From the sequence record KP869102: 64,000 bases of DNA; one strand, written 5' to 3'. Positions 7,648 through 59,760 of this stretch are shown here, in pieces. This DNA comes from Escherichia coli O157 typing phage 4. Made by a program: the position numbers and the translations under genes. Under the pieces are notes generated by a model that saw nothing but the letters and a program-made list of their open reading frames with translations, was not told where the DNA came from and made no database searches. The first letter of the stretch is position 1. Each line of letters opens with the position of its first letter.

Positions 7648-8736
7648 TTAGATAAAACGCTTGAACATAGAAGGTGATGAGATTGATGGAATCACACAAG
7701 GAAGTGCTACCTCCTCTTTCTCCAGGAAATTAATCGCAGAAGCTACACAGTCGGCCCAGTCGTCTTTCCTGTTAAATGTTGATCTTTCCCCGTTGAATTT
7801 TTCAAGTTCAGTCAGAAATGCTTCCAGAGTATCAGGATGGAAACTGGATTTTACAATCCTAACCATTCCTTGTTGGGCAAGATTGGCAAAAGGTGAGAAC
7901 CTTGTCAGTTTAGATTTGTTGGAAGGCATTGGGTCTTCTTCAACCCTAAACCCTTCGGCGAGCAAGGATCTGGAGGATGTTAAGAACTCACTCTTACCTG
8001 CCTGACCGGGGTCCACAGAGAATACGATTATACAATCATCACCATCAAACTGCGCCTGTTTCCTGATGATCACATCTCGTTCACCAGCCTTTTTACAGAA
8101 CTTGCCTTCCAGACCTGTGGAATACCTCCCGTCATCCACGTTCTCAGGACAATAATCACCGGACAGGTAATAAAAGCCGTCGCTATCTTTACTTACCTTA
8201 ACACTGGCGGTAAAGTCAGGAAATTTATTACCGGAAGTTCTCTCGGTTCCTGCCTTATCCCATGCCCTGCAAGATACTGATCCAAGGGGTACTCTATCGG
8301 CATCACGAAGGAAAGATCTTTGAAAATAGTTTGCACCCTCAGGCTTTGCAAACCAGTTGCCATGAAGAAGCTGGGCTTTTTCAAGCTCGGGCAGACCTTC
8401 AAGAAAAGCAAGGTATTCTGGGTTGTCTCTCAAGCAGACAGGATTATCGAAGATTGTTGCGCCTATAAACGAGAATGACAACGGTCTTGGCTTGATCTCT
8501 ACACCAAGTCCGTTAACCGTGGTGTATTTCTCTATCAACTCTTCCTTAGAGTCTCCCCAAATAAATTCACCGTCGCGTCGGATAAAATATCTTTTCTTAC
8601 CGCATTTCTCCGGATCTGGATACCCTTCATCGTCCAACCACCATCTAACCAGTTTGGCAAGCATGTGTTCTGAATCTGGGTTACAGCTGATAACCATTCT
8701 TGATGGATACTTTGACTGAGATCGCAGACGAGACAT
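7648..8736 (-). CDS. terL: terminase large subunit, C-terminal nuclease part (exon 2 or separately translated half)
   Basis: 362 aa with terminase-like VISCNP segment; continues the Walker A/B-containing ORF at 9650..10078. Confidence 0.75.
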   Translation of the reverse strand: MSRLRSQSKYPSRMVISCNPDSEHMLAKLVRWWLDDEGYPDPEKCGKKRYFIRRDGEFIWGDSKEELIEKYTTVNGLGVEIKPRPLSFSFIGATIFDNPVCLRDNPEYLAFLEGLPELEKAQLLHGNWFAKPEGANYFQRSFLRDADRVPLGSVSCRAWDKAGTERTSGNKFPDFTASVKVSKDSDGFYYLSGDYCPENVDDGRYSTGLEGKFCKKAGERDVIIRKQAQFDGDDCIIVFSVDPGQAGKSEFLTSSRSLLAEGFRVEEDPMPSNKSKLTRFSPFANLAQQGMVRIVKSSFHPDTLEAFLTELEKFNGERSTFNRKDDWADCVASAINFLEKEEVALPCVIPSISSPSMFKRFI

Positions 8737-9649
8737 CAGGTAGTCTATCTGTTCCCATTCGAATTGTGTCGTTTATGTTCAGGCAAGGTCGCTAGTCTTG
8801 CCCCGCCATTTTCAGGCAGCTGCATGTCTCCATGCAGACCAGACTATATCTTATGAATGTGTAAATACTCTGCCGCTCTAAGAATAGTTTCCTCATCTTC
8901 TTGGAAGAAACCTAAAGCTCTGTTGCATTTATCACAAAGCAACCCTCTTACAGCACCAGTTTTATGGTCATGATCAACACAAAAGAAATCTCTGTACCCT
9001 TGCGTCCTATACTCATCGAGAGATATTCTACAAATGGCACACTTATGATCTTGATCTGAGAGTAGACGATAGTATTCATCTTTTGTTATGTGAAATTTCT
9101 TCTCAATCTGATAAAACTTTTCACACATCTTACACCTGTTCGTAACCAGATATACTTTACCATAGTCACGTTTTGTGTAAAAACTATCAGCGAGCATACT
9201 TTCATGACAAGATTTGCATTCAAAAAGTTCACCTTTCTTCAGCAAGTCTTGAATAAATAATGCTGCGTCATCTCTCTTAACCATATTTTTGTTTTTACGA
9301 GATCCACCCTTCCTGTAGTACATATAGCATTCCTTGCATGTACCTGAGTATCCATCCTTGCTCTTAGATGATAAAAAGAAATCATCAATAGGTAGAACTC
9401 TTTGGCAATCCATACATTTTTTAGTATTACACATTCACCCTCCCGTTTCGAATCGCTTGATTCTACGTCTTTCGACTAGTCGTTGAACGTTCATCCTCTC
9501 GGATGCTTCGCTGCGGATTATCTAAACTAACACACTGTTACCATACCTTCGATCTCTCTTCGAAGCCTCTATCATGTTACCATGACAGGTTGGTGGTGTC
9601 AATAATAAAGATTTCCCCGCAATTAGGGAGGTTTTACGAGAGCTACAAA
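8737..9649 (-). mobile_element. intervening sequence in terL: candidate group I intron (or free-standing HEG insertion)
   Basis: ~910 bp between the two terL halves; contains endonuclease ORF flanked by 215-nt and ~107-nt non-coding segments. Confidence 0.6.
8844..9434 (-). CDS. homing endonuclease, endonuclease VII/HNH family
   Basis: Cys-rich N-terminus plus CVDHDHKTGAVRGLLCDKCN motif (Endo VII-type HNH). Confidence 0.75.
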   Translation of the reverse strand: MCNTKKCMDCQRVLPIDDFFLSSKSKDGYSGTCKECYMYYRKGGSRKNKNMVKRDDAALFIQDLLKKGELFECKSCHESMLADSFYTKRDYGKVYLVTNRCKMCEKFYQIEKKFHITKDEYYRLLSDQDHKCAICRISLDEYRTQGYRDFFCVDHDHKTGAVRGLLCDKCNRALGFFQEDEETILRAAEYLHIHKI

Positions 9650-10078
9650 TTAACCCTCATCGAAGCAAACCATGGTGTACTCAAGCCCTTGATGGTTAAG
9701 CTTATCTTGTACATACTCCATGTGGCAGTATTTTACAACAGCTCCCTTTTTGCTTCTATCCCACTTGCCAGTGTTCGGATCAAACCGTGGAAAAATGAAC
9801 TTATGATCCTTCTCTCTGAACTTTGGCTTAATGTTTTCAGGCAGATCGCTATAAATAGCTACTGCTTTAGGCCATAGTCCACCCTCACCTTCCAACTGTG
9901 GGGTTGTTCTTCGGAACATAACCACAGAGCTGTGGGGGTCATCAATAATTTTAAGTGGCATCAACTGCAAGAGAAACGACTTGCCAGACCCTGCGGCACC
10001 GCCGATTACCAAAATATCTGCATCGTTTTCGAGGATCATCTTCTGCTTTTCAGAACACGGTCCGTAAATCTTAGACAT
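9650..10078 (-). CDS. terL: terminase large subunit, N-terminal ATPase part (exon 1)
   Basis: Walker A GGAAGSGKS and Walker B VCFDE; ORF ends at a stop right after Walker B. Confidence 0.8.
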   Translation of the reverse strand: MSKIYGPCSEKQKMILENDADILVIGGAAGSGKSFLLQLMPLKIIDDPHSSVVMFRRTTPQLEGEGGLWPKAVAIYSDLPENIKPKFREKDHKFIFPRFDPNTGKWDRSKKGAVVKYCHMEYVQDKLNHQGLEYTMVCFDEG

Positions 10079-10769: not shown

Positions 10770-10806
10770 CCAGAAACGAAAAAACCCCGCAGCTATGCAG
10801 CTAACG
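10770..10806 (-). terminator. rho-independent terminator
   Basis: On minus strand: CCCCG stem / 15-nt loop / CGGGG followed by TTTTTT. Confidence 0.5.
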
Positions 10807-10865
10807 GGGCGGGTTAAAATTGAGTAACCTAAATAGATCGAAACTAACTAAAAGGAGACTAATAC

Positions 10866-11135
10866 TTATCGAGGCACTCGGTGGATGATTCTAACAGTAA
10901 CTGCATTTTCATTCATCAAGTATGCATCTACATCTCTGTAAATATAAAACTTCTGCTCACTATCAACAACACAAGCTACTGCCCCTTCAGAGTTGTCTTC
11001 AAAAAAGACCACCACTGCATCGCAGCTGAGTTCATGATATGACTCTCGAAGATTTACAGCCAGAGGATTGAAATCGTCACGAAAATCTACGGTATGGGTT
11101 GGATTTACACGCTCTACAATTTTAAGTGTATACAT
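10866..11135 (-). CDS. hypothetical protein
   Basis: ORF trimmed to ATG at 11135 (AAAGGA RBS) so it does not overlap tRNA-Pro. Confidence 0.4.
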   Translation of the reverse strand: MYTLKIVERVNPTHTVDFRDDFNPLAVNLRESYHELSCDAVVVFFEDNSEGAVACVVDSEQKFYIYRDVDAYLMNENAVTVRIIHRVPR

Positions 11136-11181
11136 TTTAAAGGTTCCTTTTGTTTGTATATGTTTAAAGTATAACTGAAAG

Positions 11182-11258
11182 TGGTCTCCACGGAGTGATT
11201 CGAACACTCGACCTCCTGATCCCAAATCAGGCGCTCTACCAAGCTGAGCTACGCGGAG
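11182..11258 (-). tRNA. tRNA-Pro (anticodon TGG)
   Basis: Cloverleaf folded by hand: C1-G72 acceptor, T-arm GAGTG-TTCGAAT-CACTC, anticodon loop TTTGGGA, CCA encoded. Confidence 0.75.
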
Positions 11259-11269
11259 TATTCATTATT

Positions 11270-11344
11270 TGGTGGCCCTGGGTGGAATTGAACCACCGTC
11301 TGGCGATTATGAGTCGCTTGCTTGAACCTTCCAGCTACAGGGCC
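11270..11344 (-). tRNA. tRNA-Met/Ile2 (anticodon CAT)
   Basis: Acceptor GGCCCTG/CAGGGCC, T-arm GGTGG-TTCAATT-CCACC, anticodon loop CTCATAA, CCA encoded. Confidence 0.7.
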
Positions 11345-11345
11345 A

Positions 11346-11421
11346 TGGTGCTGATGGCAGGACTTGAACCTGCAACCTATTGATTACAAATCAATTGCAC
11401 TACCAATTGTGCTACATCAGC
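11346..11421 (-). tRNA. tRNA-Thr (anticodon TGT)
   Basis: Perfect acceptor GCTGATG/CATCAGC, T-loop TTCAAGT, anticodon loop TTTGTAA, CCA encoded. Confidence 0.75.
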
Positions 11422-11426
11422 AAAAA

Positions 11427-11517
11427 GGTGCTAGGTGATGGAGTCGAACCACCCGAATCGCAATGATAACAGATTTACAGTCTGCCCCGCTACCCCTACG
11501 GAATTAACTCACCTAAA
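11427..11517 (-). tRNA. tRNA-Tyr-like (anticodon GTA), long variable arm; possibly aberrant
   Basis: Anticodon arm GCAGA-CTGTAAA-TCTGT, T-arm GGTGG-TTCGACT-CCATC, variable hairpin; acceptor stem pairs imperfectly. Confidence 0.45.
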
Positions 11518-11643
11518 TACTAATATTTAAATTCTTTTTAAAATAGCTAGTGTTCTCACCACTAACTATGAGGTATCGGTAAAGTGGTTACCGCCACTTG
11601 CCGAAGATTTACTCTGCTAAAGTAAGCTACATTAAAAAGAACT

Positions 11644-11718
11644 TGGCACCCCGTACTGGACTCGAACCAGTGTCAACGGCTTAGAAGGCCGCTGCTTTAT
11701 CCACTAAGCTAACAGGGC
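11644..11718 (-). tRNA. tRNA-Arg (anticodon TCT)
   Basis: Acceptor with two G-U pairs, T-arm ACTGG-TTCGAGT-CCAGT, anticodon loop CTTCTAA, CCA encoded. Confidence 0.7.
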
Positions 11719-11814
11719 ACTGGGTGGCTTTCTTTTACACCTTAGCCGCCAGAAAAGGTGGGAGACCATGTTTACAATATTACACTGTTAAGCAAAGTTT
11801 GTCAAGAAAATATT

Positions 11815-12153
11815 TTAGCTATTGCTAACAGGCTGTATTTCTGTGGTAAACGGCATAAAAGGTGCTGGTTTTTCAGCCTCTTCTACTACCACCTCTTCCT
11901 CTTCACCAAACATCTCATCATATTCTTCCTGCATTCGGTCTGCCTTATCAAGAACATACTCTGCAATGCTTTGACGAATATTTTGTTTGGTTTTCGGGTC
12001 CAACATCAGCTCTCTTAAAACTTTGTGAGCTTCTGGAACCATCGCTATAAAAGATTCCTTCATATCAAGGATGTTCTTCTCTAGCTGAATGGCGTTGGAC
12101 TCCTCTTTCAGAGGTCTGCCTCTACGGCGACGCTTTTTAGTTGTATCCGCCAT
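11815..12153 (-). CDS. putative terminase small subunit / DNA-binding packaging protein
   Basis: 112 aa from ATG at 12153 (GGAGGA RBS); basic N-terminus KKRRRRGRP, acidic C-terminus; upstream of terL. Confidence 0.4.
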   Translation of the reverse strand: MADTTKKRRRRGRPLKEESNAIQLEKNILDMKESFIAMVPEAHKVLRELMLDPKTKQNIRQSIAEYVLDKADRMQEEYDEMFGEEEEVVVEEAEKPAPFMPFTTEIQPVSNS

Positions 12154-12501
12154 GTTTCCTCCATTATCACGTGATAGGTGGATTTTATCACAGCAAATAC
12201 TGATTGTCAAGTTCGCCGCAGGGTGGTGTTCCCTGCGACTTGTCCAGCGTCCTGGACCAGCAAGACCCAACAAGTGGGTTTTCCAGCTATACCCATTACC
12301 GCGCTCAGGCTCGACCTTATTACAGGTTGGCTGGGGTCACATCGTCATGTGCTGGCTGCCCCTACCATTTTAAGTGTGGTGCACTATCAAGCCCTCTAAG
12401 GGGAACTCAGTCTTCTCCGAACCCTGTTTCAAAGCATCCGGAGATAAAGCCATCAAATTCATCTTTAAATTGGATATTCATCATGATACACGAAAACAAC
12501 C

Positions 12502-12744
12502 TCATTGTAAAGCGCAAATAAATAAAACATACTTAATTTGTTTGTTATCAGGCTCAGGGTAGAAGTAGAAGATCTTGCTATCACCGATCTGAACACCACC
12601 ATCCCAACAGCATAGCCCATAACCTGTATTCATACAAGCTAAGTCGTTGGCAAAATCTATTGCATCATCCAGTGCACGAAATTCACCTTCATCTTCTAAA
12701 TAATCCTCATTCATGGAACGAAAAACGAGCTTAACCTTAAACAT
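12502..12744 (-). CDS. hypothetical protein
   Basis: 80-aa minus-strand ORF. Confidence 0.35.
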   Translation of the reverse strand: MFKVKLVFRSMNEDYLEDEGEFRALDDAIDFANDLACMNTGYGLCCWDGGVQIGDSKIFYFYPEPDNKQIKYVLFICALQ

Positions 12745-12820
12745 AGCATTACCTGTAGACCTCGTAAGTTAAAATTGTAGCACATCATATTGCAGATCTT
12801 ATCAGGTAACACTGTTTTTG

Positions 12821-13030
12821 TCAACAGATTCCGGCCTTATCTCGCCTGTCTGCGTATTCTTTAATCGCAACCTCATCTGCATTAGTGACCAGGTCTTCAA
12901 AGTAACTCTCAAGCTCCTCGTCAATGTCAGGAGACCAGCTCTTTTTCCTGTCAGTGTGAATTGCAGACTTGTTGAACTTATTACAGTTCTTTGCTACCGG
13001 GTTATTCATTAAGCGCTCCTCAGCGTTCAT
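12821..13030 (-). CDS. hypothetical protein
   Basis: 69-aa acidic ORF, short overlap with upstream gene. Confidence 0.3.
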   Translation of the reverse strand: MNAEERLMNNPVAKNCNKFNKSAIHTDRKKSWSPDIDEELESYFEDLVTNADEVAIKEYADRRDKAGIC

Positions 13031-13598
13031 AGTAAATTTTATTTAACATTACCTCATCCTTTGCAGAAAGAATACCGAGATATGCATCACCGAATCTACC
13101 TGCAACAACCTCTGCATGATACATTACTTCGTTAATATCGTCAAGAGTGATAACTGGATGACCGTATCTCTCTGAGTATTGTCTCAGAGTGCGATGTAGA
13201 GAGTCATCATCATAGGCAGACTTTTTAATATCACAAACACGACGAATAGCCTTGATGTCGAAAAACCCTGTACGATACCAACCAAGAAAAAGGTTTCGTG
13301 CAGTGTCAACATCTACATCAATACCATCAAGAACCTTATCTACAAGATAGCTATCATCCTTTGGACTCGCTTCCTTAGTGCGGATATAGTTGCCATCTTT
13401 TCCAGGTGACAGCTCCTTCTCATCACCAGCCTTCATGTCATCATTTGGCGGGGTTAGCCACTTATCCGGATGCTTACGATCACGAGCGTTAGAATGATTA
13501 CGCTGGAAACCTGGCTGCCACTTGAAAGTTTTCTCCATCTGTTCTTCATTCTGATAACGTTTTGCAATCTTTTCACGGTCATCTTTGCGTGAACTCAT
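13020..13598 (-). CDS. hypothetical protein
   Basis: 192-aa ORF. Confidence 0.5.
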   Translation of the reverse strand: MSSRKDDREKIAKRYQNEEQMEKTFKWQPGFQRNHSNARDRKHPDKWLTPPNDDMKAGDEKELSPGKDGNYIRTKEASPKDDSYLVDKVLDGIDVDVDTARNLFLGWYRTGFFDIKAIRRVCDIKKSAYDDDSLHRTLRQYSERYGHPVITLDDINEVMYHAEVVAGRFGDAYLGILSAKDEVMLNKIYYER

Positions 13599-14102
13599 AG
13601 CTGCCTCCTCTTCAAGTTATAGAAAAACTCACTGTATCGCTTTGTAACGAGCTTTTCTATCAAACTGGTGCGATTGCATTACTTGGTATGGTTTATATAG
13701 CTGTGGAGCGATTTAGGGTCCTTCTTGTCCGTTTCCACACATAAACTTTATCCAAACTCGCGCGGGAGGCTCTCAACCGACTCCTTACGGCGCTGGCAAG
13801 CTTTCGTCGGTGGCCCACATTAGTGCTCGGCCTTTGGCCTGCGCTATCGCTTCGCTCCCACACATGTTAACAGACCTGCATGTATGCACTTCTGTTATTG
13901 TGTGCACTATGGAGGCCCGGCATCTCGCCCCTCGTAGGCGAGTGCCAATGAAGGGCCGACACTACCCATAGTAAGTAATAAATTTAAAACATGGTACTTA
14001 GGATCTAATATATTCTACATAAGTTAAGTATATGTACTTTAGTACCATAAGTACTAGATCTTTTATTTTTTATTATTCAGTTATTTTAGTTATATTCTTT
14101 AT

Positions 14103-14170
14103 GTGTCCGTATCACGGACAGTTAGTGTCCGTATTACGGGCAGTAGTGTCCGTATCACGGACAGTTAGTG
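14103..14170. repeat. three tandem palindromes TGTCCGT-N3-ACGGACA (candidate operator or origin sites)
   Basis: 18-bp inverted repeat present three times at ~21-23 bp spacing; middle copy degenerate. Confidence 0.6.
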
Positions 14171-14238
14171 GACTCTGTTCCAGAGCGAACATAAAACATA
14201 CGAATCCTTATAGTACAGATATTTAAGTTTTTACTGGT

Positions 14239-14589
14239 CTAACCAGTTGTTGACATCCGAATAACCTCTTCTGGTGGCAAAACTTTGGAAAATGTGCATC
14301 TTTTACCTCTCCCTTGTGTGGATGTTTCAACCACCCCCGCACACTCTAAAGTTTTAACGCACGCTGCTGCTTTTGTTTTCTTTATCCCAACATCTGCTGC
14401 AATTTTCCTTGTGCTTGGTGTGAAGCGTGAATTTCCTCCAAGCTTATACCAGTTGTGCAGGTAGCAGTATACAATCTTGTCATACAAGTCAAGAACAACA
14501 ACCTCTCCAGTTGTGTCATTCAAAACTTTTGACATAGACAGTATTTCAAGGGGGACTTTAAGATATAGCAGCTTATCCCCATCTTTCAT
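14239..14589 (-). CDS. putative HTH DNA-binding protein
   Basis: 116 aa with helix-turn-helix-like segment TRKIAADVGIKKTKAAACVKTLECAGVV. Confidence 0.45.
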   Translation of the reverse strand: MKDGDKLLYLKVPLEILSMSKVLNDTTGEVVVLDLYDKIVYCYLHNWYKLGGNSRFTPSTRKIAADVGIKKTKAAACVKTLECAGVVETSTQGRGKRCTFSKVLPPEEVIRMSTTG

Positions 14590-14636
14590 ATCTCCTGATT
14601 CTCCTTGTGTGGCAATTTTCTTTAAAATAGCAGGGA

Positions 14637-15191
14637 TTACTCCCCGCTGTCAATAGCAAAACTCATTGCAATACGGTATGCTTCTTCTAATGGTAAGAGT
14701 CTCCCCCACACATCCCAACCGACATCAAGCTGCCTGCCAAACAACTGTTGTGTGGTTCCGTGAGCATGACCGAACAGTTGGACTGATCCATGAGGCTTTC
14801 TGTTCCACTTTGCAAACTGGTAATGGCTCATACAGATCAAATTCTTGTTGTGGCGAAGCTCGTAATAATCTACAACCTCGTGATAGAACTCTTTCATAAT
14901 TCTGACAGTCGTCCTTGTGTCATGGTTGCCACGAACAAGAATAATATGTCCGTTCAACATATTTAGAATATCCGGGAGTAAGTTGTTGATATTCTTATCA
15001 TTAGTGCACGCAATATCTCCCAAGTGGAACACAGTGTCTGCAGGTGACACAACAGAGTTCCACTCGGCGATGATTCCTGCATTCATACTGTCAAGATTGT
15101 GATCATACTGAGATCTGTGTTTTTGACATGAATCAAACTCCATGACCCGCTGGTGGAGAAAGTGTGTGTCGCTTGTTACAAAGTATTTCAT
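14637..15191 (-). CDS. calcineurin-like metallophosphoesterase
   Basis: Motifs DTHF, GDIAC, GNHD; start trimmed to ATG at 15191 with GAGGA RBS. Confidence 0.7.
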   Translation of the reverse strand: MKYFVTSDTHFLHQRVMEFDSCQKHRSQYDHNLDSMNAGIIAEWNSVVSPADTVFHLGDIACTNDKNINNLLPDILNMLNGHIILVRGNHDTRTTVRIMKEFYHEVVDYYELRHNKNLICMSHYQFAKWNRKPHGSVQLFGHAHGTTQQLFGRQLDVGWDVWGRLLPLEEAYRIAMSFAIDSGE

Positions 15192-15198
15192 ACATTCC

Positions 15199-15609
15199 TC
15201 ATTTAAGTTTAATGCAGTTTTTAAGCTGGCGTTCCATACGATCCACAACCCTGTCTGGAACATCATGAATGCTTTTATTACCGTGGCGGTTTTCAACCAC
15301 GATCACGGTATAACTATACCCATGACTGATTGCCATGTCAACATATTCCTGCACATGTTTTTCTTTTGTAAACGTATTACTTACCACGATACGGTCGTAT
15401 CCCATACGCATCATATCTTCTACGTTATCTTTGCACCATTTTGCTGCGAGTGTTACTTTACTTGCATCCCAGTTGTAATTGCCGTCATCGTCATACCAGA
15501 ACATGTCGTTCTCAAAATGTGGATACAGACCTTCTAAAGATAGCGCATTTGCCAGTGTTGATTTGCCAGACCCTGGCAGACCACGCACGATATATAGCAT
15601 TTTAGACAT
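15199..15609 (-). CDS. P-loop kinase (polynucleotide kinase-like)
   Basis: Walker A GLPGSGKST near N-terminus; start at ATG 15609 with GGAGGA RBS. Confidence 0.6.
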   Translation of the reverse strand: MSKMLYIVRGLPGSGKSTLANALSLEGLYPHFENDMFWYDDDGNYNWDASKVTLAAKWCKDNVEDMMRMGYDRIVVSNTFTKEKHVQEYVDMAISHGYSYTVIVVENRHGNKSIHDVPDRVVDRMERQLKNCIKLK

Positions 15610-15709
15610 AGCAATCCTCCGTTTTAATTTTAATGATAGTATACCTAACTGTTTTGTTAATTTCAAGTGTTGACACTAGGTTATTTGTGTGGCAGGATAG
15701 ACTGACAAA

Positions 15710-16645
15710 ATGACAAATGAGGAACGTATGATGAAGTATTTTAATGCAGACGATCTAGTTGACAAAGGTCTTGTAACCAGCAGATATTACCCAGATCTTG
15801 GATTAAAGATTTATAAATATGCCAGAAAAGTATTTTACAACAATTTATGGCATTTGTCCCCTCGTTTGCTGGAGTGCCGAGGCATTGTTGTCGGTAATGA
15901 AGGAAATGTTGTGGCATGGCCCTTCACAAAAGTGTTTAACTTGGGAGAAAATCACACCAACCTGCCTGACAATAAGCTTGTGACGGCGGTAGAGAAAAAG
16001 AACGGATTCCTCGGTGTGGTGTCATCTCATAAAGGTGAACTATTGTTCTCAACAACCGGATCTCTTGATTCCCCATATTGTAACCTCGCAAAGGAAACCA
16101 TCCGGGAGCAATGTGGTAATTTAGATCTTATCAAGAAGGTTATGGGCAATGAAAACATGACATTCATGTTTGAAATTTGTCACCCTTCAGATCCGCATAT
16201 TGTTCAGGAAGATCATGGCGCATATTTGATAGGTTGCAGATATAATGATTCTGGAATAATGCTACCAGAAGCAGCTTTAGATGGGATTGCCAAATACCTT
16301 GGCGCAAAACGTCCTCACACTGTGCGTGAAATTCCGTTCAGCTATGCAAAAGAATTGGCTGCAGAAACAAGAGGTGAAGGGTATATGATTCGTAAGCCTT
16401 ACTACCCTTATGATCTGCAGCTGAAGATCAAGTCTCCATACTATCTGGCACGGAAGGCCGTAATGAGGGGTAAAGCTTGGAAGATTTGGGATGATGATAT
16501 CTTTAAACGTGTTGACGAAGAGTTTTACGGCATGGTAAACTTCATTCGTAGCAATTACACAGAAGATGTGTGGAACTGCCTACTGGAGCAGGAACGCAGG
16601 GAGATACTCGACCACTATTTCCACAACGAGGACTATATGCAATGA
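15710..16645 (+). CDS. putative RNA ligase (nucleotidyltransferase superfamily)
   Basis: Lysine motif VEKKNGF (KxNG) in 311-aa protein; divergent from flanking kinase/phosphoesterase. Confidence 0.5.
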   Translation: MTNEERMMKYFNADDLVDKGLVTSRYYPDLGLKIYKYARKVFYNNLWHLSPRLLECRGIVVGNEGNVVAWPFTKVFNLGENHTNLPDNKLVTAVEKKNGFLGVVSSHKGELLFSTTGSLDSPYCNLAKETIREQCGNLDLIKKVMGNENMTFMFEICHPSDPHIVQEDHGAYLIGCRYNDSGIMLPEAALDGIAKYLGAKRPHTVREIPFSYAKELAAETRGEGYMIRKPYYPYDLQLKIKSPYYLARKAVMRGKAWKIWDDDIFKRVDEEFYGMVNFIRSNYTEDVWNCLLEQERREILDHYFHNEDYMQ

Positions 16646-16992
16646 AGAAGTTGATTGTGTGGCTGGATGATTTGAGAGATCCGTCAAATTATGGACTCCC
16701 AGACGCTGTTTGGCTGAAGAATTCCTCCGAGTTTATGGATTTTATTAACGATAAGGGAAAGCTCTACAGACGCGTTTCTGAGTGGCATATGGACAACGAC
16801 CTAGGAGAAGTATTCGAAGGATATGATTGCCTATCCATGTTGGAGGAAAAATTTGTATTCGGTAAGCCTCCCGTGGTTGACAACGTGAAGATTTTCGTAC
16901 ATACTTCTAATCCATCAGCGGCTCGTAAATTCATGCTTGCAGCTGACTCGTTTAAAAAGTTTGGAATAGAGATTAAACAAAACATCTACTGA
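16642..16992 (+). CDS. hypothetical protein
   Basis: ATGA overlap with ligase stop; 116 aa. Confidence 0.4.
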   Translation: MKKLIVWLDDLRDPSNYGLPDAVWLKNSSEFMDFINDKGKLYRRVSEWHMDNDLGEVFEGYDCLSMLEEKFVFGKPPVVDNVKIFVHTSNPSAARKFMLAADSFKKFGIEIKQNIY

Positions 16993-17000
16993 GGACACTT

Positions 17001-17762
17001 ATGCGACGACTGATTATTATCTCCGGTGCTGGTTTGAGCGCTGAATCTGGTATTCCCACTTTCCGATCTGGTAGCACTGCAATGTGGGAGAATTTCAGCA
17101 TCGATGAGGTGTGCAACATCCACACCTTTGCCAAGAACTACTATAAGGTGCATGACTTTTACAATGCACGTCGCGTAGCTCTGGGCAGTGTTGATCCTAA
17201 CCTTGCACATCTTCGGATCGCTGAGTGGTATTCCCGCTGGTCTGGTCGTGTGATCAACCTTACCACCAATGTAGATGATTTGCTGGAGCGTGCTGGTGTA
17301 AAACATGAAGATATTTTACATGTCCACGGGTATTTGCCTGAAATCACCTACGAAGATGCTGAAGGTAATGATGTAATTAAAAATATCGGATACACGGAGG
17401 TAGATACAGGCAAGTATACCTGGGTTAAGCCCAATGTAGTGTTCTTCGGTGAGGTTGCTCCTAAGTATACAGACATGTATGACCTGTTGACATCTCTCAC
17501 AAGCAATGATATGGTGATCCTGGTAGGTTGTTCTAACACAGTTATTAATTTTAACTGGGAATTGTTTCCTGCTACTTGTAAAGGCACAAAACTGCTGATT
17601 GTAAACAAGTATGATTCGCAGAGTGCAGATGGAAGTGGCATTTCACGTAGCGACCTTTATCAATATGAGGATCGCGGGATCCCTGTATGGTTTAACGGTG
17701 CTGTTGACGCTTTCTCTGATAAAGTATTTATTGAAACTGTAGAAAACTTTATGGAACTTTAA
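17001..17762 (+). CDS. Sir2-family NAD-dependent deacetylase / ADP-ribosyltransferase
   Basis: Sirtuin motifs GAGLSAESGIPTFR, NxDxL-like TTNVDDL and HG. Confidence 0.7.
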   Translation: MRRLIIISGAGLSAESGIPTFRSGSTAMWENFSIDEVCNIHTFAKNYYKVHDFYNARRVALGSVDPNLAHLRIAEWYSRWSGRVINLTTNVDDLLERAGVKHEDILHVHGYLPEITYEDAEGNDVIKNIGYTEVDTGKYTWVKPNVVFFGEVAPKYTDMYDLLTSLTSNDMVILVGCSNTVINFNWELFPATCKGTKLLIVNKYDSQSADGSGISRSDLYQYEDRGIPVWFNGAVDAFSDKVFIETVENFMEL

Positions 17763-17775
17763 AAGGAGACCTTTA

Positions 17776-18489
17776 ATGCTGAATACTAAACTGATCGACA
17801 ACCTGGAAAAACTGTCTCAGCCTGAAAACTACCTTTGGTCTGCCAACTGGGTGGAAAACTGGAACCGTGTGGCAGCTAAGGTGAAAAAATCATACACACC
17901 ATTCGAATTACAGCTTAGCTTCATTGAGGAAGAGTTCAATGAAGTTTTGGAAGAGCTGGAGAAAGGTGATGGTGGAGATCACTTGCTAAAAGAGGCCTGC
18001 GATCTTCATGTTGTCACAAGTTATGCCGCTTATCTTGTTAATGACAATCACGAAAAGTGGTCAAACCTGTTTGATAATCCACGAGGTATTAAGTTCAAGA
18101 TTGGTGAGTTCTATGATACACTGATCGCTGCGAAAAACACCTCTAAGCAAAGAGCGTCTGCTTACCGCTTAGCAGAGTTGTCAACAGCTTTGCTGTTCCA
18201 GCTTCGCGGCGATGTGTGCGGGATGATGCGTAAGGTTCTCAAATCGAATGACAGCAAGTTTGCACGGGTCAACCATCTACGGTATTCACACGGTGCCAGT
18301 GCAGATATGCCTGCTGAACAACTCATCGAGTTGGAGATTAAAGATCTTGAGCGACGCTTTGATGGTCGATATGAAGGTTTTGTTGCTAAGGAAGAATTCT
18401 ACAACGGTAATAAAGTTATCATATTCCTTGACAGTAAAGGTAAGATCATGAAGCCTTCAAGCTTCAAGGATGTAACAGAGTATATTTAA
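17776..18489 (+). CDS. putative MazG-like nucleotide pyrophosphohydrolase
   Basis: EEEFNEVLEELE...EACDL resembles the MazG EExxE motif; weak. Confidence 0.35.
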   Translation: MLNTKLIDNLEKLSQPENYLWSANWVENWNRVAAKVKKSYTPFELQLSFIEEEFNEVLEELEKGDGGDHLLKEACDLHVVTSYAAYLVNDNHEKWSNLFDNPRGIKFKIGEFYDTLIAAKNTSKQRASAYRLAELSTALLFQLRGDVCGMMRKVLKSNDSKFARVNHLRYSHGASADMPAEQLIELEIKDLERRFDGRYEGFVAKEEFYNGNKVIIFLDSKGKIMKPSSFKDVTEYI

Positions 18490-18522
18490 CAACATAGCCG
18501 GGATCACCCGGCTTTACTTGTT

Positions 18523-18861
18523 GTGGAAAGTATGCAAGTGAGGCAGATAGTTATGTACAAGCACTCTAGAGATCTTGAAAACGATGCTGTGTTTGGGGAT
18601 CAGATGAAAGAGTTGGTTAAACTCATAGGCAGGATAGAGGATAAGTTTGACACTAAGATCTACATCGACAGCAAAGTATTCAACCACAAAATATGGACAA
18701 ATCTGTGTGTTGGACTACATGGAGATAAAGATGTTGTAAATTTAGTTGTAATTAGGTTCATAGTGTGGCAGAATAAAACTATAAATTATTACGATCCACA
18801 CCTGCTTGTTTACCCGATAAAAGACCTATTAGATAAGGAGGACTGCAATGCCGTTATTTAA
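18523..18861 (+). CDS. hypothetical protein
   Basis: 112-aa ORF. Confidence 0.4.
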   Translation: MESMQVRQIVMYKHSRDLENDAVFGDQMKELVKLIGRIEDKFDTKIYIDSKVFNHKIWTNLCVGLHGDKDVVNLVVIRFIVWQNKTINYYDPHLLVYPIKDLLDKEDCNAVI

Positions 18862-19117
18862 TCTTGCTAAACCTGTAGAAGCACACCAGTTTGACGGAAG
18901 CTCTTCATCAGTATCTGATCTGCAACGGTGGATTGATACAGGTGTGTTTACATCGTCACCTGTTCGGACCAGAGATCTTCGTCGTATGTGTGAGCTTGTA
19001 GAGCCGTTTGGTAACCTAGTCTTGTACCAGGGTGATTGGCTTGTTGATTTTATGGGGGACTGGTTGGTAATGAGTAAAGAAGAGATGTTTAAAATTTTTA
19101 AGGAAGAGGTAGAGTAA
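18848..19117 (+). CDS. hypothetical protein
   Basis: 89-aa ORF overlapping neighbours by a few nt. Confidence 0.4.
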   Translation: MPLFNLAKPVEAHQFDGSSSSVSDLQRWIDTGVFTSSPVRTRDLRRMCELVEPFGNLVLYQGDWLVDFMGDWLVMSKEEMFKIFKEEVE

Positions 19118-20400
19118 TGCATCAAATCAAAACAACACTGTACGCACTGAACAAAGATGGCAGCTACCAACAGTGGAAAGTATTCACGGATGGTGATAAG
19201 GTTATCGTAGAGTTTGGCAAGCTTGATGGTAAACTGCAATACAAAGAGACGATCTGCACACCTAAGAACGTAGGTCGTGCCAACGAGACTACAGCTGAGC
19301 AACAGGCCGAGCTTGAGGCTATCAGTAAGTGGGAAAAACAAGTCCGTCTGGGGTATGTTGAAAACATGGAAGATTGCGAGCAGGGTGTTGACCTTTTACC
19401 CATGCTGGTGCATGACTATCTGAAGCGTGGCAAGGCACTTAAATTACCTTGCTGGATCTTGCGTAAGTTAGATGGCCTTCGTCTGCTTGTTGTTTTCCAA
19501 AATGGTGAGCCTAAATTTATTTCCCGTGGTAATAAGTCCTACCCTATTCAAGGAAAGCTTTTAGAGCAACTTCGTTCTTTCCATTCTACCACTGGGATTA
19601 AACAACTTGATGGGGAACTATACATTCATGGTCTTCCTTTGCAGAAAATAGTGTCTCTTGCTAAACGGTGGCGCACACAGGAAGAGATTCAGGCCGAGAT
19701 CGATAAAGACTATGAGGCAGATAAAAAACGCCGTCATGCCGCAATTAAGGCAGGCTTATCAACATACAAAAACTTCAACAAGGTAGATATTCCTGTCGAT
19801 GTTGATCCTGTTCGTGATGATTTGCGTTACGGTGGGTACTGTAGCTACGATCTGGAGTATCACATTTTTGATATTCCTAGCGACAAGGTGTGGTGGGATC
19901 CAGAAACAGAGTCTGGACGCTGCAAGGATCTTATGGATGCAGAGGATACCGTTACCACTCTGATGCTTGACCATATCAAGGTTGTTGACGCAGAGCTTGC
20001 GTACACAGTTGATCATTGCGAAGAATCTGTTGGTATATTCATGTCCGAAGGATATGAAGGTACCATTATGCGTAACTTCTGTGGTAAATATGAGTACGGT
20101 CAGCGAACATCTGAAGCATTGAAATGGAAAAAGTTCAACGACGCAGAGGTGAAAGTTATTGACGTTGAGAAAGATAAGAATGATGAAGGTGTTCTTATCT
20201 GTGTTGACAAGGAAGGTATTGTTGTTAAAATGAAGATGAAAGGTACGCACGAGGAGCGTAGCTATGACAGAATGCAGGAAATGATCGGCAAGTTTGTCAC
20301 CTTCAAATATCAAGCAAGGACAGAAGACAACAACTACCAATTCCCTGTCGGTATCTGCGTCCGAAATGTTAACCCAGACACTTGGGAGGTGCTGGAATAA
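19117..20400 (+). CDS. ATP-dependent DNA ligase
   Basis: Adenylation motif I RKLDGLR (KxDG) and EGTIMR motif; 427 aa. Confidence 0.75.
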   Translation: MHQIKTTLYALNKDGSYQQWKVFTDGDKVIVEFGKLDGKLQYKETICTPKNVGRANETTAEQQAELEAISKWEKQVRLGYVENMEDCEQGVDLLPMLVHDYLKRGKALKLPCWILRKLDGLRLLVVFQNGEPKFISRGNKSYPIQGKLLEQLRSFHSTTGIKQLDGELYIHGLPLQKIVSLAKRWRTQEEIQAEIDKDYEADKKRRHAAIKAGLSTYKNFNKVDIPVDVDPVRDDLRYGGYCSYDLEYHIFDIPSDKVWWDPETESGRCKDLMDAEDTVTTLMLDHIKVVDAELAYTVDHCEESVGIFMSEGYEGTIMRNFCGKYEYGQRTSEALKWKKFNDAEVKVIDVEKDKNDEGVLICVDKEGIVVKMKMKGTHEERSYDRMQEMIGKFVTFKYQARTEDNNYQFPVGICVRNVNPDTWEVLE

Positions 20401-59202: not shown

Positions 59203-59760
59203 TCAACACTTTTTGTACTCCACCACGATAATATTCATATCAAAAGTGGCAAGGTTAATAACGTCCTCTACGTGCTCCCACTTCAAACCGCCTATGCCGC
59301 ACCCGATCTTAGGGATGTAGAATGGTAAAGTCGATCCACTGAATACCTCATTGACTAGCTCAAAGCCTTTCAGGATTGAGAAATATTCAGCATTAGGTCC
59401 TGGGTAGAACTGAGTATACAGATTGATTCCGTAGACAATACCTCTCGGAGATAAGTGCTCCCATCGGGAGAACGCACCCAGTTTACTTAGGCAACCGTGT
59501 CTGGTCTCTTTGTCAGCTGCCAATGCTTGAGGGAACTCACGGGCAATCTGTTTTGCTATCCCCTTGCCCATTGTGTGGAAGCAGTTACAACCGTGGATCA
59601 GGTGACCAGCACCGCTCTTAAAAAGGGAGATTAAATCTCCCTCTACAGTATCAATAATCACGGTATGCCAGCTCCTCTTCCGCAATTTCAAAAAACTCAT
59701 CCCAACCTTGTGGCATATTTGAGTTGCCGAAGTGGCTTTCATAGTAAAGGTTCTCACCAC
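59203..59760 (-). CDS. macro-domain protein (ADP-ribose binding/processing)
   Basis: HLIHGCNCFHTMGKGIAKQIAREFP resembles the macro-domain core; true start probably an internal ATG. Confidence 0.55.
   Translation of the reverse strand: MVRTFTMKATSATQICHKVGMSFLKLRKRSWHTVIIDTVEGDLISLFKSGAGHLIHGCNCFHTMGKGIAKQIAREFPQALAADKETRHGCLSKLGAFSRWEHLSPRGIVYGINLYTQFYPGPNAEYFSILKGFELVNEVFSGSTLPFYIPKIGCGIGGLKWEHVEDVINLATFDMNIIVVEYKKC

Follow-up and report, generated by a model that had tools for sequence, protein, structure and literature searches.

A probable RNA heal-and-seal module split over three small proteins in a Vequintavirus, with relatives in other phages and in bacteria

Introduction

Defences that cut tRNA (PrrC, PARIS, retron-associated nucleases and Cas13) are now viewed as a major arm of bacterial immunity, and the T4 Pnkp/Rnl1 pair is, to our knowledge, the only experimentally proven repair answer of a phage. 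The locus described here belongs to Escherichia coli O157 typing phage 4 (sequence record KP869102) and was analysed within a stretch of 64,000 nucleotides (nt), called the window below, to which all coordinates refer unless the handle of another locus is given. It carries adjacent genes for a metallophosphoesterase (MPP), a P-loop kinase and an RNA ligase, which together probably constitute a T4-style heal-and-seal system for RNA, with its activities divided among three small proteins.

The neighbourhood has already been described in silico and is not new as a discovery. Iyer et al. (2022, Viruses 14:1977; PMC9503650) defined a type 2 sirtuin-centred RNA-repair neighbourhood in Escherichia phage V5 and Proteus phage Mydo, which contains a sirtuin, a T4-like tRNA ligase, cREC, a nucleotide kinase, MazG and an "occasional" calcineurin-like phosphoesterase. 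All six components are present in the window between 14637 and 18489, and the novelty implied by the original prediction, which had been made from the letters of the window alone, therefore does not hold. GenBank records such as that of the BASEL phage CarlMeissner (Bas48) already name a polynucleotide kinase, an RNA ligase and a phosphoesterase. A 2025 paper on Pakpunavirus invoked a kinase and a ligase for tRNA repair, and stated that the kinase "lacks the 3'-phosphatase domain"; in a related Pseudomonas phage (L005) an MPP gene is located 248 nt upstream of the ligase gene, and this enzyme would fill the 3'-phosphatase gap.

The ligase, the kinase and the metallophosphoesterase

The original prediction read positions 14637 to 16645 as three adjacent genes for a calcineurin-type phosphoesterase, a P-loop kinase and a KxNG nucleotidyltransferase, a reading on which Pfam, PHROG and the sequence motifs agree. 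The genes, their products (lengths in amino acids, aa) and the sites within them are as follows.

14637..15191, minus strand: MPP, gp074, 184 aa; proposed 3'-end healing enzyme
15199..15609, minus strand: stand-alone P-loop kinase, gp075, 136 aa; proposed polynucleotide 5'-OH kinase
15559..15582, minus strand: codons of the kinase P-loop, G10-LPGSGK-S17 (from the translation; G10, G15, K16 and T18 invariant)
15610..15730, no strand: divergent intergenic spacer of 121 nt between the kinase start and the ligase start (from the sequence)
15731..16645, plus strand: Rnl1-clade ATP-dependent RNA ligase, gp076, 304 aa; proposed sealing enzyme
15995..16006, plus strand: codons of ligase motif I, K89-K-N-G92, K89 being the predicted adenylylated lysine (profile alignment and homologues)

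The 3.8 kb around the trio show 100% identity to Escherichia phage JES2013 (NC_022323), an rV5-like myovirus of the genus Vequintavirus, and the locus is collinear with 117 other Vequintavirus-type records, nearly all of them at least 90% identical. The three coding sequences (CDSs) agree with the RefSeq annotation of JES2013, whose record coordinates minus 50144 give the window coordinates. The true start of the MPP is M36 of its longest open reading frame (ORF), with the kinase gene 7 nt upstream, and the ligase starts at the ATG at 15731, which is preceded by GAGGA at a distance of 7 nt and corresponds to the residue at which the homologues start, the longest ORF beginning at 15710.

The ligase gp076, which bears the name RNA ligase in PHROG, matches RNA_lig_T4_1 (PF09511) with 55.9 bits against a gathering score of 28.3 and over the full 227-position profile. 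Motifs I (K89-K-N-G92), III (F147-E148), IV (E216-G217) and V (K232-x-K234) are invariant in an alignment of 30 homologues with 41-49% identity. Since single-sequence phmmer searches of the PDB with the ligase, the kinase and the cREC protein returned noise only, profiles were used for the ligase and the kinase. The ligase profile has T4 Rnl1 as its sole significant match (E = 1e-12), in which K89 is aligned to K99, the nucleophile of T4 Rnl1, and does not find Trl1 by sequence. In the fold comparison T4 Rnl1 is closest (score 23.4, with 261 of 304 residues aligned), followed by fungal Trl1-LIG (21.5-22.5), Rnl3 (15.7-17), Rnl5 (13.2) and Rnl2 (12.6); DNA ligases score at most 10.4, the CthPnkp ligase domain 7.9 and the Pnkp1-system ligase 6.9. 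By profile and predicted fold gp076 is assigned to the Rnl1/Trl1 clade of RNA ligases, and neither to the DNA ligases nor to an unrelated fold.

The kinase gp075 is placed by Pfam in the generic AAA_33 family only and is named ATPase/polynucleotide kinase in PHROG. Within the P-loop G10-LPGSGKS-T18 the residues G10, G15, K16 and T18 are invariant across the family, as is D35, which in the profile alignment coincides with the catalytic D35 of T4 Pnk. The family profile aligns over its full length with T4 Pnk, Clostridium thermocellum Pnk, Capnocytophaga Pnkp1, mammalian PNKP and tRNA(Sec) kinase; nucleoside/nucleotide-type kinases match it at the P-loop only. The structural neighbours of the predicted kinase are likewise polynucleotide kinases, with the adenylate, uridylate, thymidylate and cytidylate kinases well below them. 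Profile and predicted fold concur in placing gp075 nearest to the T4 and bacterial polynucleotide kinases, and the polynucleotide specificity supposed in the original prediction is supported as far as closest relatives can tell. The repeated fusion of this kinase to the RNA ligase, described below, lends indirect support to an action on 5'-OH ends of RNA or DNA.

The MPP gp074 scores 26.3 bits with Pfam Metallophos (cut-off 21.5), also matches Metallophos_2, and belongs to the phosphoesterase family phrog_547 (E = 8e-45). All 27 sequences compared share the six metal-binding motifs unchanged (D8-x-H10, G58-D59, G88-N89-H90, H123, G141-H142-x-H144). Among solved structures Aquifex aq_1665 (1xm7) comes closest, with a profile E of 7e-23, followed by weak matches to GpdQ, YfcE and Rv0805. 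According to PMC2190708, the MPPs of CthPnkp and lambda phosphatase can act as RNA 2',3'-cyclic phosphodiesterase and phosphatase, and we propose that gp074 would act as a 2',3'-cyclic phosphodiesterase and 3'/2'-phosphomonoesterase on RNA ends. A scan of the nine proteins encoded from 13020 to 20400 gave no HAD match, and gp075, at 136 aa, is without a second domain. The division of end healing over two proteins, with an MPP and not a HAD phosphatase, was part of the original prediction and accords with the intact active site of the MPP, its tight and repeated linkage to the other two genes, and the absence of a HAD domain.

Conservation of the trio in phages and bacteria

The ligase was found in 677 of 50,697 phage records, among them phages of Escherichia, Pseudomonas, Vibrio, Klebsiella, Acinetobacter and Streptomyces. 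When 87 phage loci with a ligase relative (36-49% ligase identity) were searched with the window proteins, an MPP homologue was present within 6 kb of the ligase in 69 loci, and a kinase homologue in 56. Collapsing the ligases at 70% identity leaves 43 non-redundant clusters; the MPP occurs in 36 of them, the kinase in 35, and the two together in 31. Many of the kinase-negative loci still hold a small P-loop ORF (GVPGSGKS) adjoining the ligase. The MPP lies at a median distance of 120 nt from the ligase, the kinase at one of 11 nt. Four gene orders occur: MPP-ligase-kinase (19), kinase-ligase-MPP (8), ligase-MPP-kinase (3) and ligase-kinase-MPP (1), and phage kinase::ligase fusions of ~420 aa are found as well. 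In the relatives the trio genes are all on the same strand, the inversion of the kinase and MPP genes being peculiar to Vequintavirus. A chance adjacency at a point of transcription divergence was considered and rejected, since in the relatives the three genes stay together on a single strand, in various orders and also fused.

A further fusion is apparent from phrog_8238 (named "RNA ligase", 737 positions), to which the window kinase matches at positions 2-109 and the window ligase at positions 440-686. This double match indicates that phage proteins exist in which the kinase and the ligase are joined through an unassigned middle part of ~330 residues, which could be another end-healing domain.

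The same combination is encoded by bacteria. In 80 bacterial loci (L090-L169; Neisseria, Kingella, Moraxella, Cardiobacterium, Pasteurellaceae and Campylobacter concisus), whose ligases share 31-37% identity with that of the window, a kinase match was obtained in 76, nearly always on the ligase ORF itself as a kinase::ligase fusion of ~500 aa, and the same MPP family is present in 67 (E ~1e-50 against the phage profile). Those examples that were checked retain intact catalytic motifs. The cassette of Neisseria flavescens (L103, 952-8404) is accompanied by Ro60/TROVE-vWA, Thg1 and NUDIX genes, and that of Moraxella osloensis (L132, 2566-10493) by TerD-vWA, UvrD helicase and RlaP genes, both annotated loci being flanked by chromosomal housekeeping genes. 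Neighbourhoods of the Ro60/TROVE, Thg1 and RlaP type are contexts that define predicted RNA-repair systems. No homologue of cREC, Sir2 or MazG, and no DNA-ligase match, was found in the 80 bacterial loci.

Because of the conserved synteny and the gene fusions, the linkage of the trio is far above chance, and the trio is a real, mobile and conserved module. The view that the adjacency is meaningless, with the ligase assisting tail-fibre attachment as T4 gp63 does, the kinase acting as a nucleotide kinase and the MPP as a nucleotidase or protein phosphatase, draws on the name "RNA ligase and tail attachment protein", which many GenBank records inherit, and on the generic AAA_33 placement of the kinase. 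It is hardly credible given that the linkage is kept across four gene orders, fusions and two kinds of genome, that the catalytic residues of the ligase are all invariant, that the structural neighbours of the kinase are polynucleotide kinases, and that the bacterial carriers, two of whose loci lie among housekeeping genes, have no tail fibres to attach.

The substrate might also be DNA, in that the kinase and the MPP would heal, on behalf of the DNA ligase of the phage, nicks at which host nucleases have left 5'-OH and 3'-phosphate ends in DNA, and the RNA ligase would have another role. T4 Pnkp and mammalian PNKP, both relatives of the kinase, act on DNA too, a DNA ligase gene is present within 6 kb in 24 of the 87 phage loci as well as here (19117-20400), and the MPP shows a weak resemblance (E = 7e-4, well short of the cut-off) to PdeM, a ligase-associated DNA-damage phosphoesterase. 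We regard this role as very unlikely, since in phages and bacteria the kinase is fused to the RNA ligase and never to a DNA ligase, its median spacing from the RNA ligase is as short as 11 nt, and none of the 80 bacterial loci has a DNA-ligase match, the two annotated ones showing the RNA-centred genes Ro60, Thg1 and RlaP instead.

Proposed repair pathway

The RNA heal-and-seal activities put forward in the original prediction find support in silico from homology, fold and synteny. In the proposed pathway, RNA would be cut by ribonucleases of the host to leave a 2',3'-cyclic phosphate and a 5'-OH; the most plausible candidates are anticodon nucleases, or else other RNases of defence systems or toxins that act without a metal. 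The MPP would open the cyclic phosphate and strip it to give a 3'-OH, while the small kinase would add a phosphate to the 5'-OH; the Rnl1-clade ligase, self-adenylylated at K89, would then pass AMP to the 5'-phosphate and seal the break. The catalytic motifs of all three enzymes are intact, the ligase and the kinase have a fold and clade assignment, and linkage and fusion recur; the RNA substrate, the chemistry of its ends and the nuclease that is countered are inferred.

Several points weigh against heal-and-seal repair of this kind. The ligase is not an equivalog of T4 RnlA (NCBIfam TIGR02308; 38.8 bits against a cut-off of 242), its profile alignment with T4 Rnl1 ends at residue 249 of 374, and only ~65 residues follow motif V where T4 Rnl1 has ~120 in its tRNA-specificity domain; a preference of gp076 for tRNA is therefore unproven. 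The kinase lacks an equivalent of T4 Pnk R38 (CthPnk R41), R38 falling in an insertion of the profile, and after D35 the family consensus reads x-Y/F-F, with D-M-F-W in the window. Chains of CthPnkp and lambda phosphatase are absent from the MPP profile search of the PDB, so that gp074 stands outside their clade and the MPP precedent is a functional and not a phylogenetic one; aq_1665, the closest relative of the MPP in the PDB, is itself without known function. The DNA-ligase neighbour in 24 of the 87 phage loci makes a part in DNA-end healing possible. Among the defence nucleases that cut tRNA, some belong to the Toprim enzymes (PARIS AriB, OLD); metal-dependent nucleases of this type would leave no cyclic-phosphate ends and may call for no healing. 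Finally, literature searches on rV5-like, Pakpuna-like and other phages turned up no experimental work on the module.

Genes downstream of the ligase

To the right of the ligase the cluster continues with three genes and a hairpin.

16642..16992, plus strand: cREC ("cyclic-phosphate processing receiver" domain) protein, gp077, 116 aa (PF20274)
17001..17762, plus strand: Sir2-family protein without zinc-binding cysteines, gp078, 253 aa (PF02146)
17776..18489, plus strand: MazG-like nucleotide pyrophosphohydrolase, gp079, 237 aa, last gene of the rightward operon (phrog_671)
18496..18513, no strand: GC-rich hairpin 7 nt past the MazG stop, probable terminator of the ligase-cREC-Sir2-MazG unit (terminator-like site on both strands)

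The trio itself is not one operon in the window, the kinase and MPP genes being on the minus strand and divergent from the plus-strand ligase across the 121-nt spacer. The promoter scan gave sigma-70-like sites on the minus strand upstream of the kinase (15666-15638 and 15660-15633) and no consensus plus-strand promoter within the spacer, where the GC skew also switches sign. The ligase, cREC, Sir2 and MazG genes are packed with a 4-nt overlap (ATGA, ligase stop and cREC start), an 8-nt gap and a 13-nt gap before the hairpin, and in Vequintavirus the ligase is co-transcribed with cREC, the zinc-less Sir2 and MazG. The trio delimited by the original prediction thus stands, and its right edge at 16645 does not, since co-operonic genes follow.

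The function of cREC (PF20274, E = 1.6e-14) is predicted only; its residues D9, D10, D13, H49-x-DND53 and H87-x-SNPS92 are invariant. The Sir2 protein (PF02146, E = 7e-28) keeps the NAD-binding and catalytic His motifs (GAG..SGIPTFR, TTNVDDL, HVHG), has no Cys between H108 and the FGE motif, and scores below every NCBIfam deacylase cut-off. The MazG-like gp079 belongs to phrog_671 (E = 5e-22) and has no Pfam or NCBIfam match. These three genes accompany the ligase in only 4-5 of the 43 phage clusters, all sampled ones coming from one group of phages of ~93-153 kb, and this rarity leads us to consider the MPP-ligase-kinase trio as a self-sufficient core. Sir2 and cREC do not always occur together, since L009, L012 and L019 carry Sir2 without cREC and L011 carries cREC without Sir2, and in the relatives MazG is 3-5 kb from the ligase. 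The three are lineage-specific accessories, which the core trio does not appear to need and which may process 2'-phosphate or ADP-ribose-linked by-products.

The six genes might instead form one unit that follows an NAD+-dependent 2'-phosphate route, like tRNA splicing in yeast and plants. Here cREC or the MPP would open the cyclic phosphate to a 2'-phosphate, the ligase would seal and leave a 2'-phosphate at the junction, Sir2 would move it onto NAD+ in the manner of Tpt1/KptA, and cREC, MazG or a Macro protein would clear the resulting ADP-ribose cyclic-phosphate. We consider this unlikely. No sirtuin with RNA 2'-phosphotransferase activity is known to us, cREC is uncharacterised, and the ligase profile finds T4 Rnl1 and not Trl1 by sequence. 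The tight packing of ligase, cREC, Sir2 and MazG up to the hairpin speaks for such a unit, but with MazG 3-5 kb away in relatives its adjacency here may be lineage synteny. Sir2, cREC and MazG are found in only 4-5 of the 43 clusters, Sir2 and cREC occur apart, and the trio persists alone in most phages and in bacteria; in view of this distribution the NAD+-dependent 2'-phosphate route is accessory or alternative and not the core. On the other side, the acidic residues of cREC are invariant, the Sir2 is atypical, without zinc-binding cysteines and below the deacylase cut-offs, a Macro-domain gene lies elsewhere in the window, and it was for this very neighbourhood that Iyer et al. (2022, PMC9503650) put the route forward. 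That the zinc-less Sir2 acts as an NAD+-dependent RNA 2'-phosphotransferase, analogous to Tpt1/KptA, and cREC as a new metal-independent cyclic phosphodiesterase is doubtful, and is neither excluded nor favoured by the data. This chemistry is the sole part that would be likely to surprise a specialist: if true, Vequintaviruses would run a yeast-like 2'-phosphate repair from unrelated folds, beside or instead of the T4-like route.

The Macro-domain ORF (59203-59670, minus strand; PF01661, E = 2e-6) is 35% identical to a Macro protein near the ligase of L003. It is 41 kb from the repair cluster, with nothing linking the two, and could process ADP-ribose derivatives if the Sir2 route operates. 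In relatives the module adjoins PRPP-synthetase-like and NAPRTase-family genes (L003 7973-10535, L005 7447-10258, L006 434-2981, L009 781-3593), and Macro-domain genes are also near the module in loci of the L003/L005/L006/L009 type. The pair of PRPP-synthetase and NAPRTase genes resembles the phage NAD+ reconstitution pathway NARP1, and the region of the relatives that holds these and Macro genes may be an anti-defence island. A NARP1-type link was rejected for the window, whose 64 kb contain no homologue of the pair.

The ATP-dependent DNA ligase gene at 19117-20400 is 2.5 kb downstream in the window, and in close relatives it directly follows Sir2.

tRNA genes and other features of the region

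A tRNA cluster is located to the left of the trio.

11182..11718, minus strand: tRNA cluster Pro-UGG, Met/Ile-CAU, Thr-UGU, Arg-UCU (ARAGORN and Rfam)

The original prediction had placed the phage's own tRNAs about 3 kb away, and the four genes are indeed at a distance of 2.9 kb. They are regarded as context, being possible beneficiaries of repair or substitutes for it. An Rfam scan of 10800-16000 returned only the four tRNAs above the gathering score and gave no evidence of a Y-RNA-like or other structured RNA cofactor; a YrlA match (25 bits against a cut-off of 69) overlaps the tRNA genes.

The segment 11421-11644 (minus strand) is a decayed part of the tRNA cluster by comparison with CarlMeissner (L002 158-644), which has a tRNA-Tyr and a 97-nt tRNA-Lys(UUU) between tRNA-Arg and tRNA-Thr. 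The window retains fragments only, among them a 5' half that resembles tRNA-Tyr (anticodon GTA) and, from the 3' part of the Lys gene, the T-arm and acceptor; neither ARAGORN nor Rfam called a tRNA there. Lys and Tyr tRNAs are classic targets of anticodon nucleases.

Between gp072 and the HTH/replication-initiation-like gp073, a segment of ~640 nt (13600-14238) is without a convincing ORF; relatives annotate tiny ORFs only, and the only Rfam match, to rli43, is sub-threshold (24 bits, cut-off 100). In the RefSeq annotation two CDSs make up the terminase large subunit (7648-10078, minus strand; ORF63-ORF65), with an endonuclease VII gene between them (~8844-9323), which suggests that the gene was split by insertion of a mobile endonuclease or an intron. 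Eighteen records labelled "Campylobacter phage" (MG065662, MG065674, MG065677 and others; host C. jejuni) also match the repair locus. They are unannotated, those listed being 97-99% identical over the 3.8 kb, and are probably contaminant or mislabelled Vequintavirus genomes.

Comparison with known systems

The locus closest to that of the window is the type 2 neighbourhood of phage V5 (Iyer et al. 2022), the same locus in the same phage genus, and in both cases the function is a prediction. That paper centres on Sir2, whereas our comparison identifies the MPP-ligase-kinase trio, and not Sir2, as the conserved core, with Sir2, cREC and MazG as rare additions. To this the present analysis adds the recurrence of the trio, as a kinase::ligase fusion with an MPP, in bacterial RNA-repair loci, the predicted structural proximity of the kinase and the ligase to T4 Pnk and T4 Rnl1, and the difference of the MPP family from the characterised RNA-healing MPPs.

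Compared with T4 Pnkp and Rnl1, which counter PrrC, the module has no DxDxT HAD phosphatase, and a separate dinuclear MPP would carry out the healing of the 3' end. The kinase stands alone and is without the Arg38 equivalent, and the ligase, with 304 aa against 374 aa in T4, has a much shorter C-terminal region and scores far below the RnlA equivalog cut-off. In the Trl1 (LIG-KIN-CPD) and Tpt1 system, the CPD is a 2H enzyme that leaves a 2'-phosphate for removal by Tpt1; here an MPP is found in its place, no Tpt1 or 2H gene is present among the genes scanned around the trio, and the fusions are of the kinase-ligase type, the reverse of the Trl1 domain order. The bacterial Pnkp/Hen1 (Clostridium thermocellum) and Pnkp1-Rnl-Hen1 (Capnocytophaga) systems also count among the nearest known RNA repair systems. 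The bacterial cassettes of Neisseriaceae, Moraxellaceae and Cardiobacteriaceae share the three homologous families with intact catalytic motifs, but they are chromosomal, have the kinase and ligase fused, are located in cellular RNA-repair contexts and lack cREC, Sir2 and MazG.

The module would thus represent a second, widespread architecture with the same predicted function as T4 Pnkp/Rnl1, and it is present in tractable E. coli phages, including CarlMeissner (Bas48), whose locus was part of the comparison. If its predicted role is true, it would also give a function to the small and poorly annotated family of aq_1665-like metallophosphoesterases.

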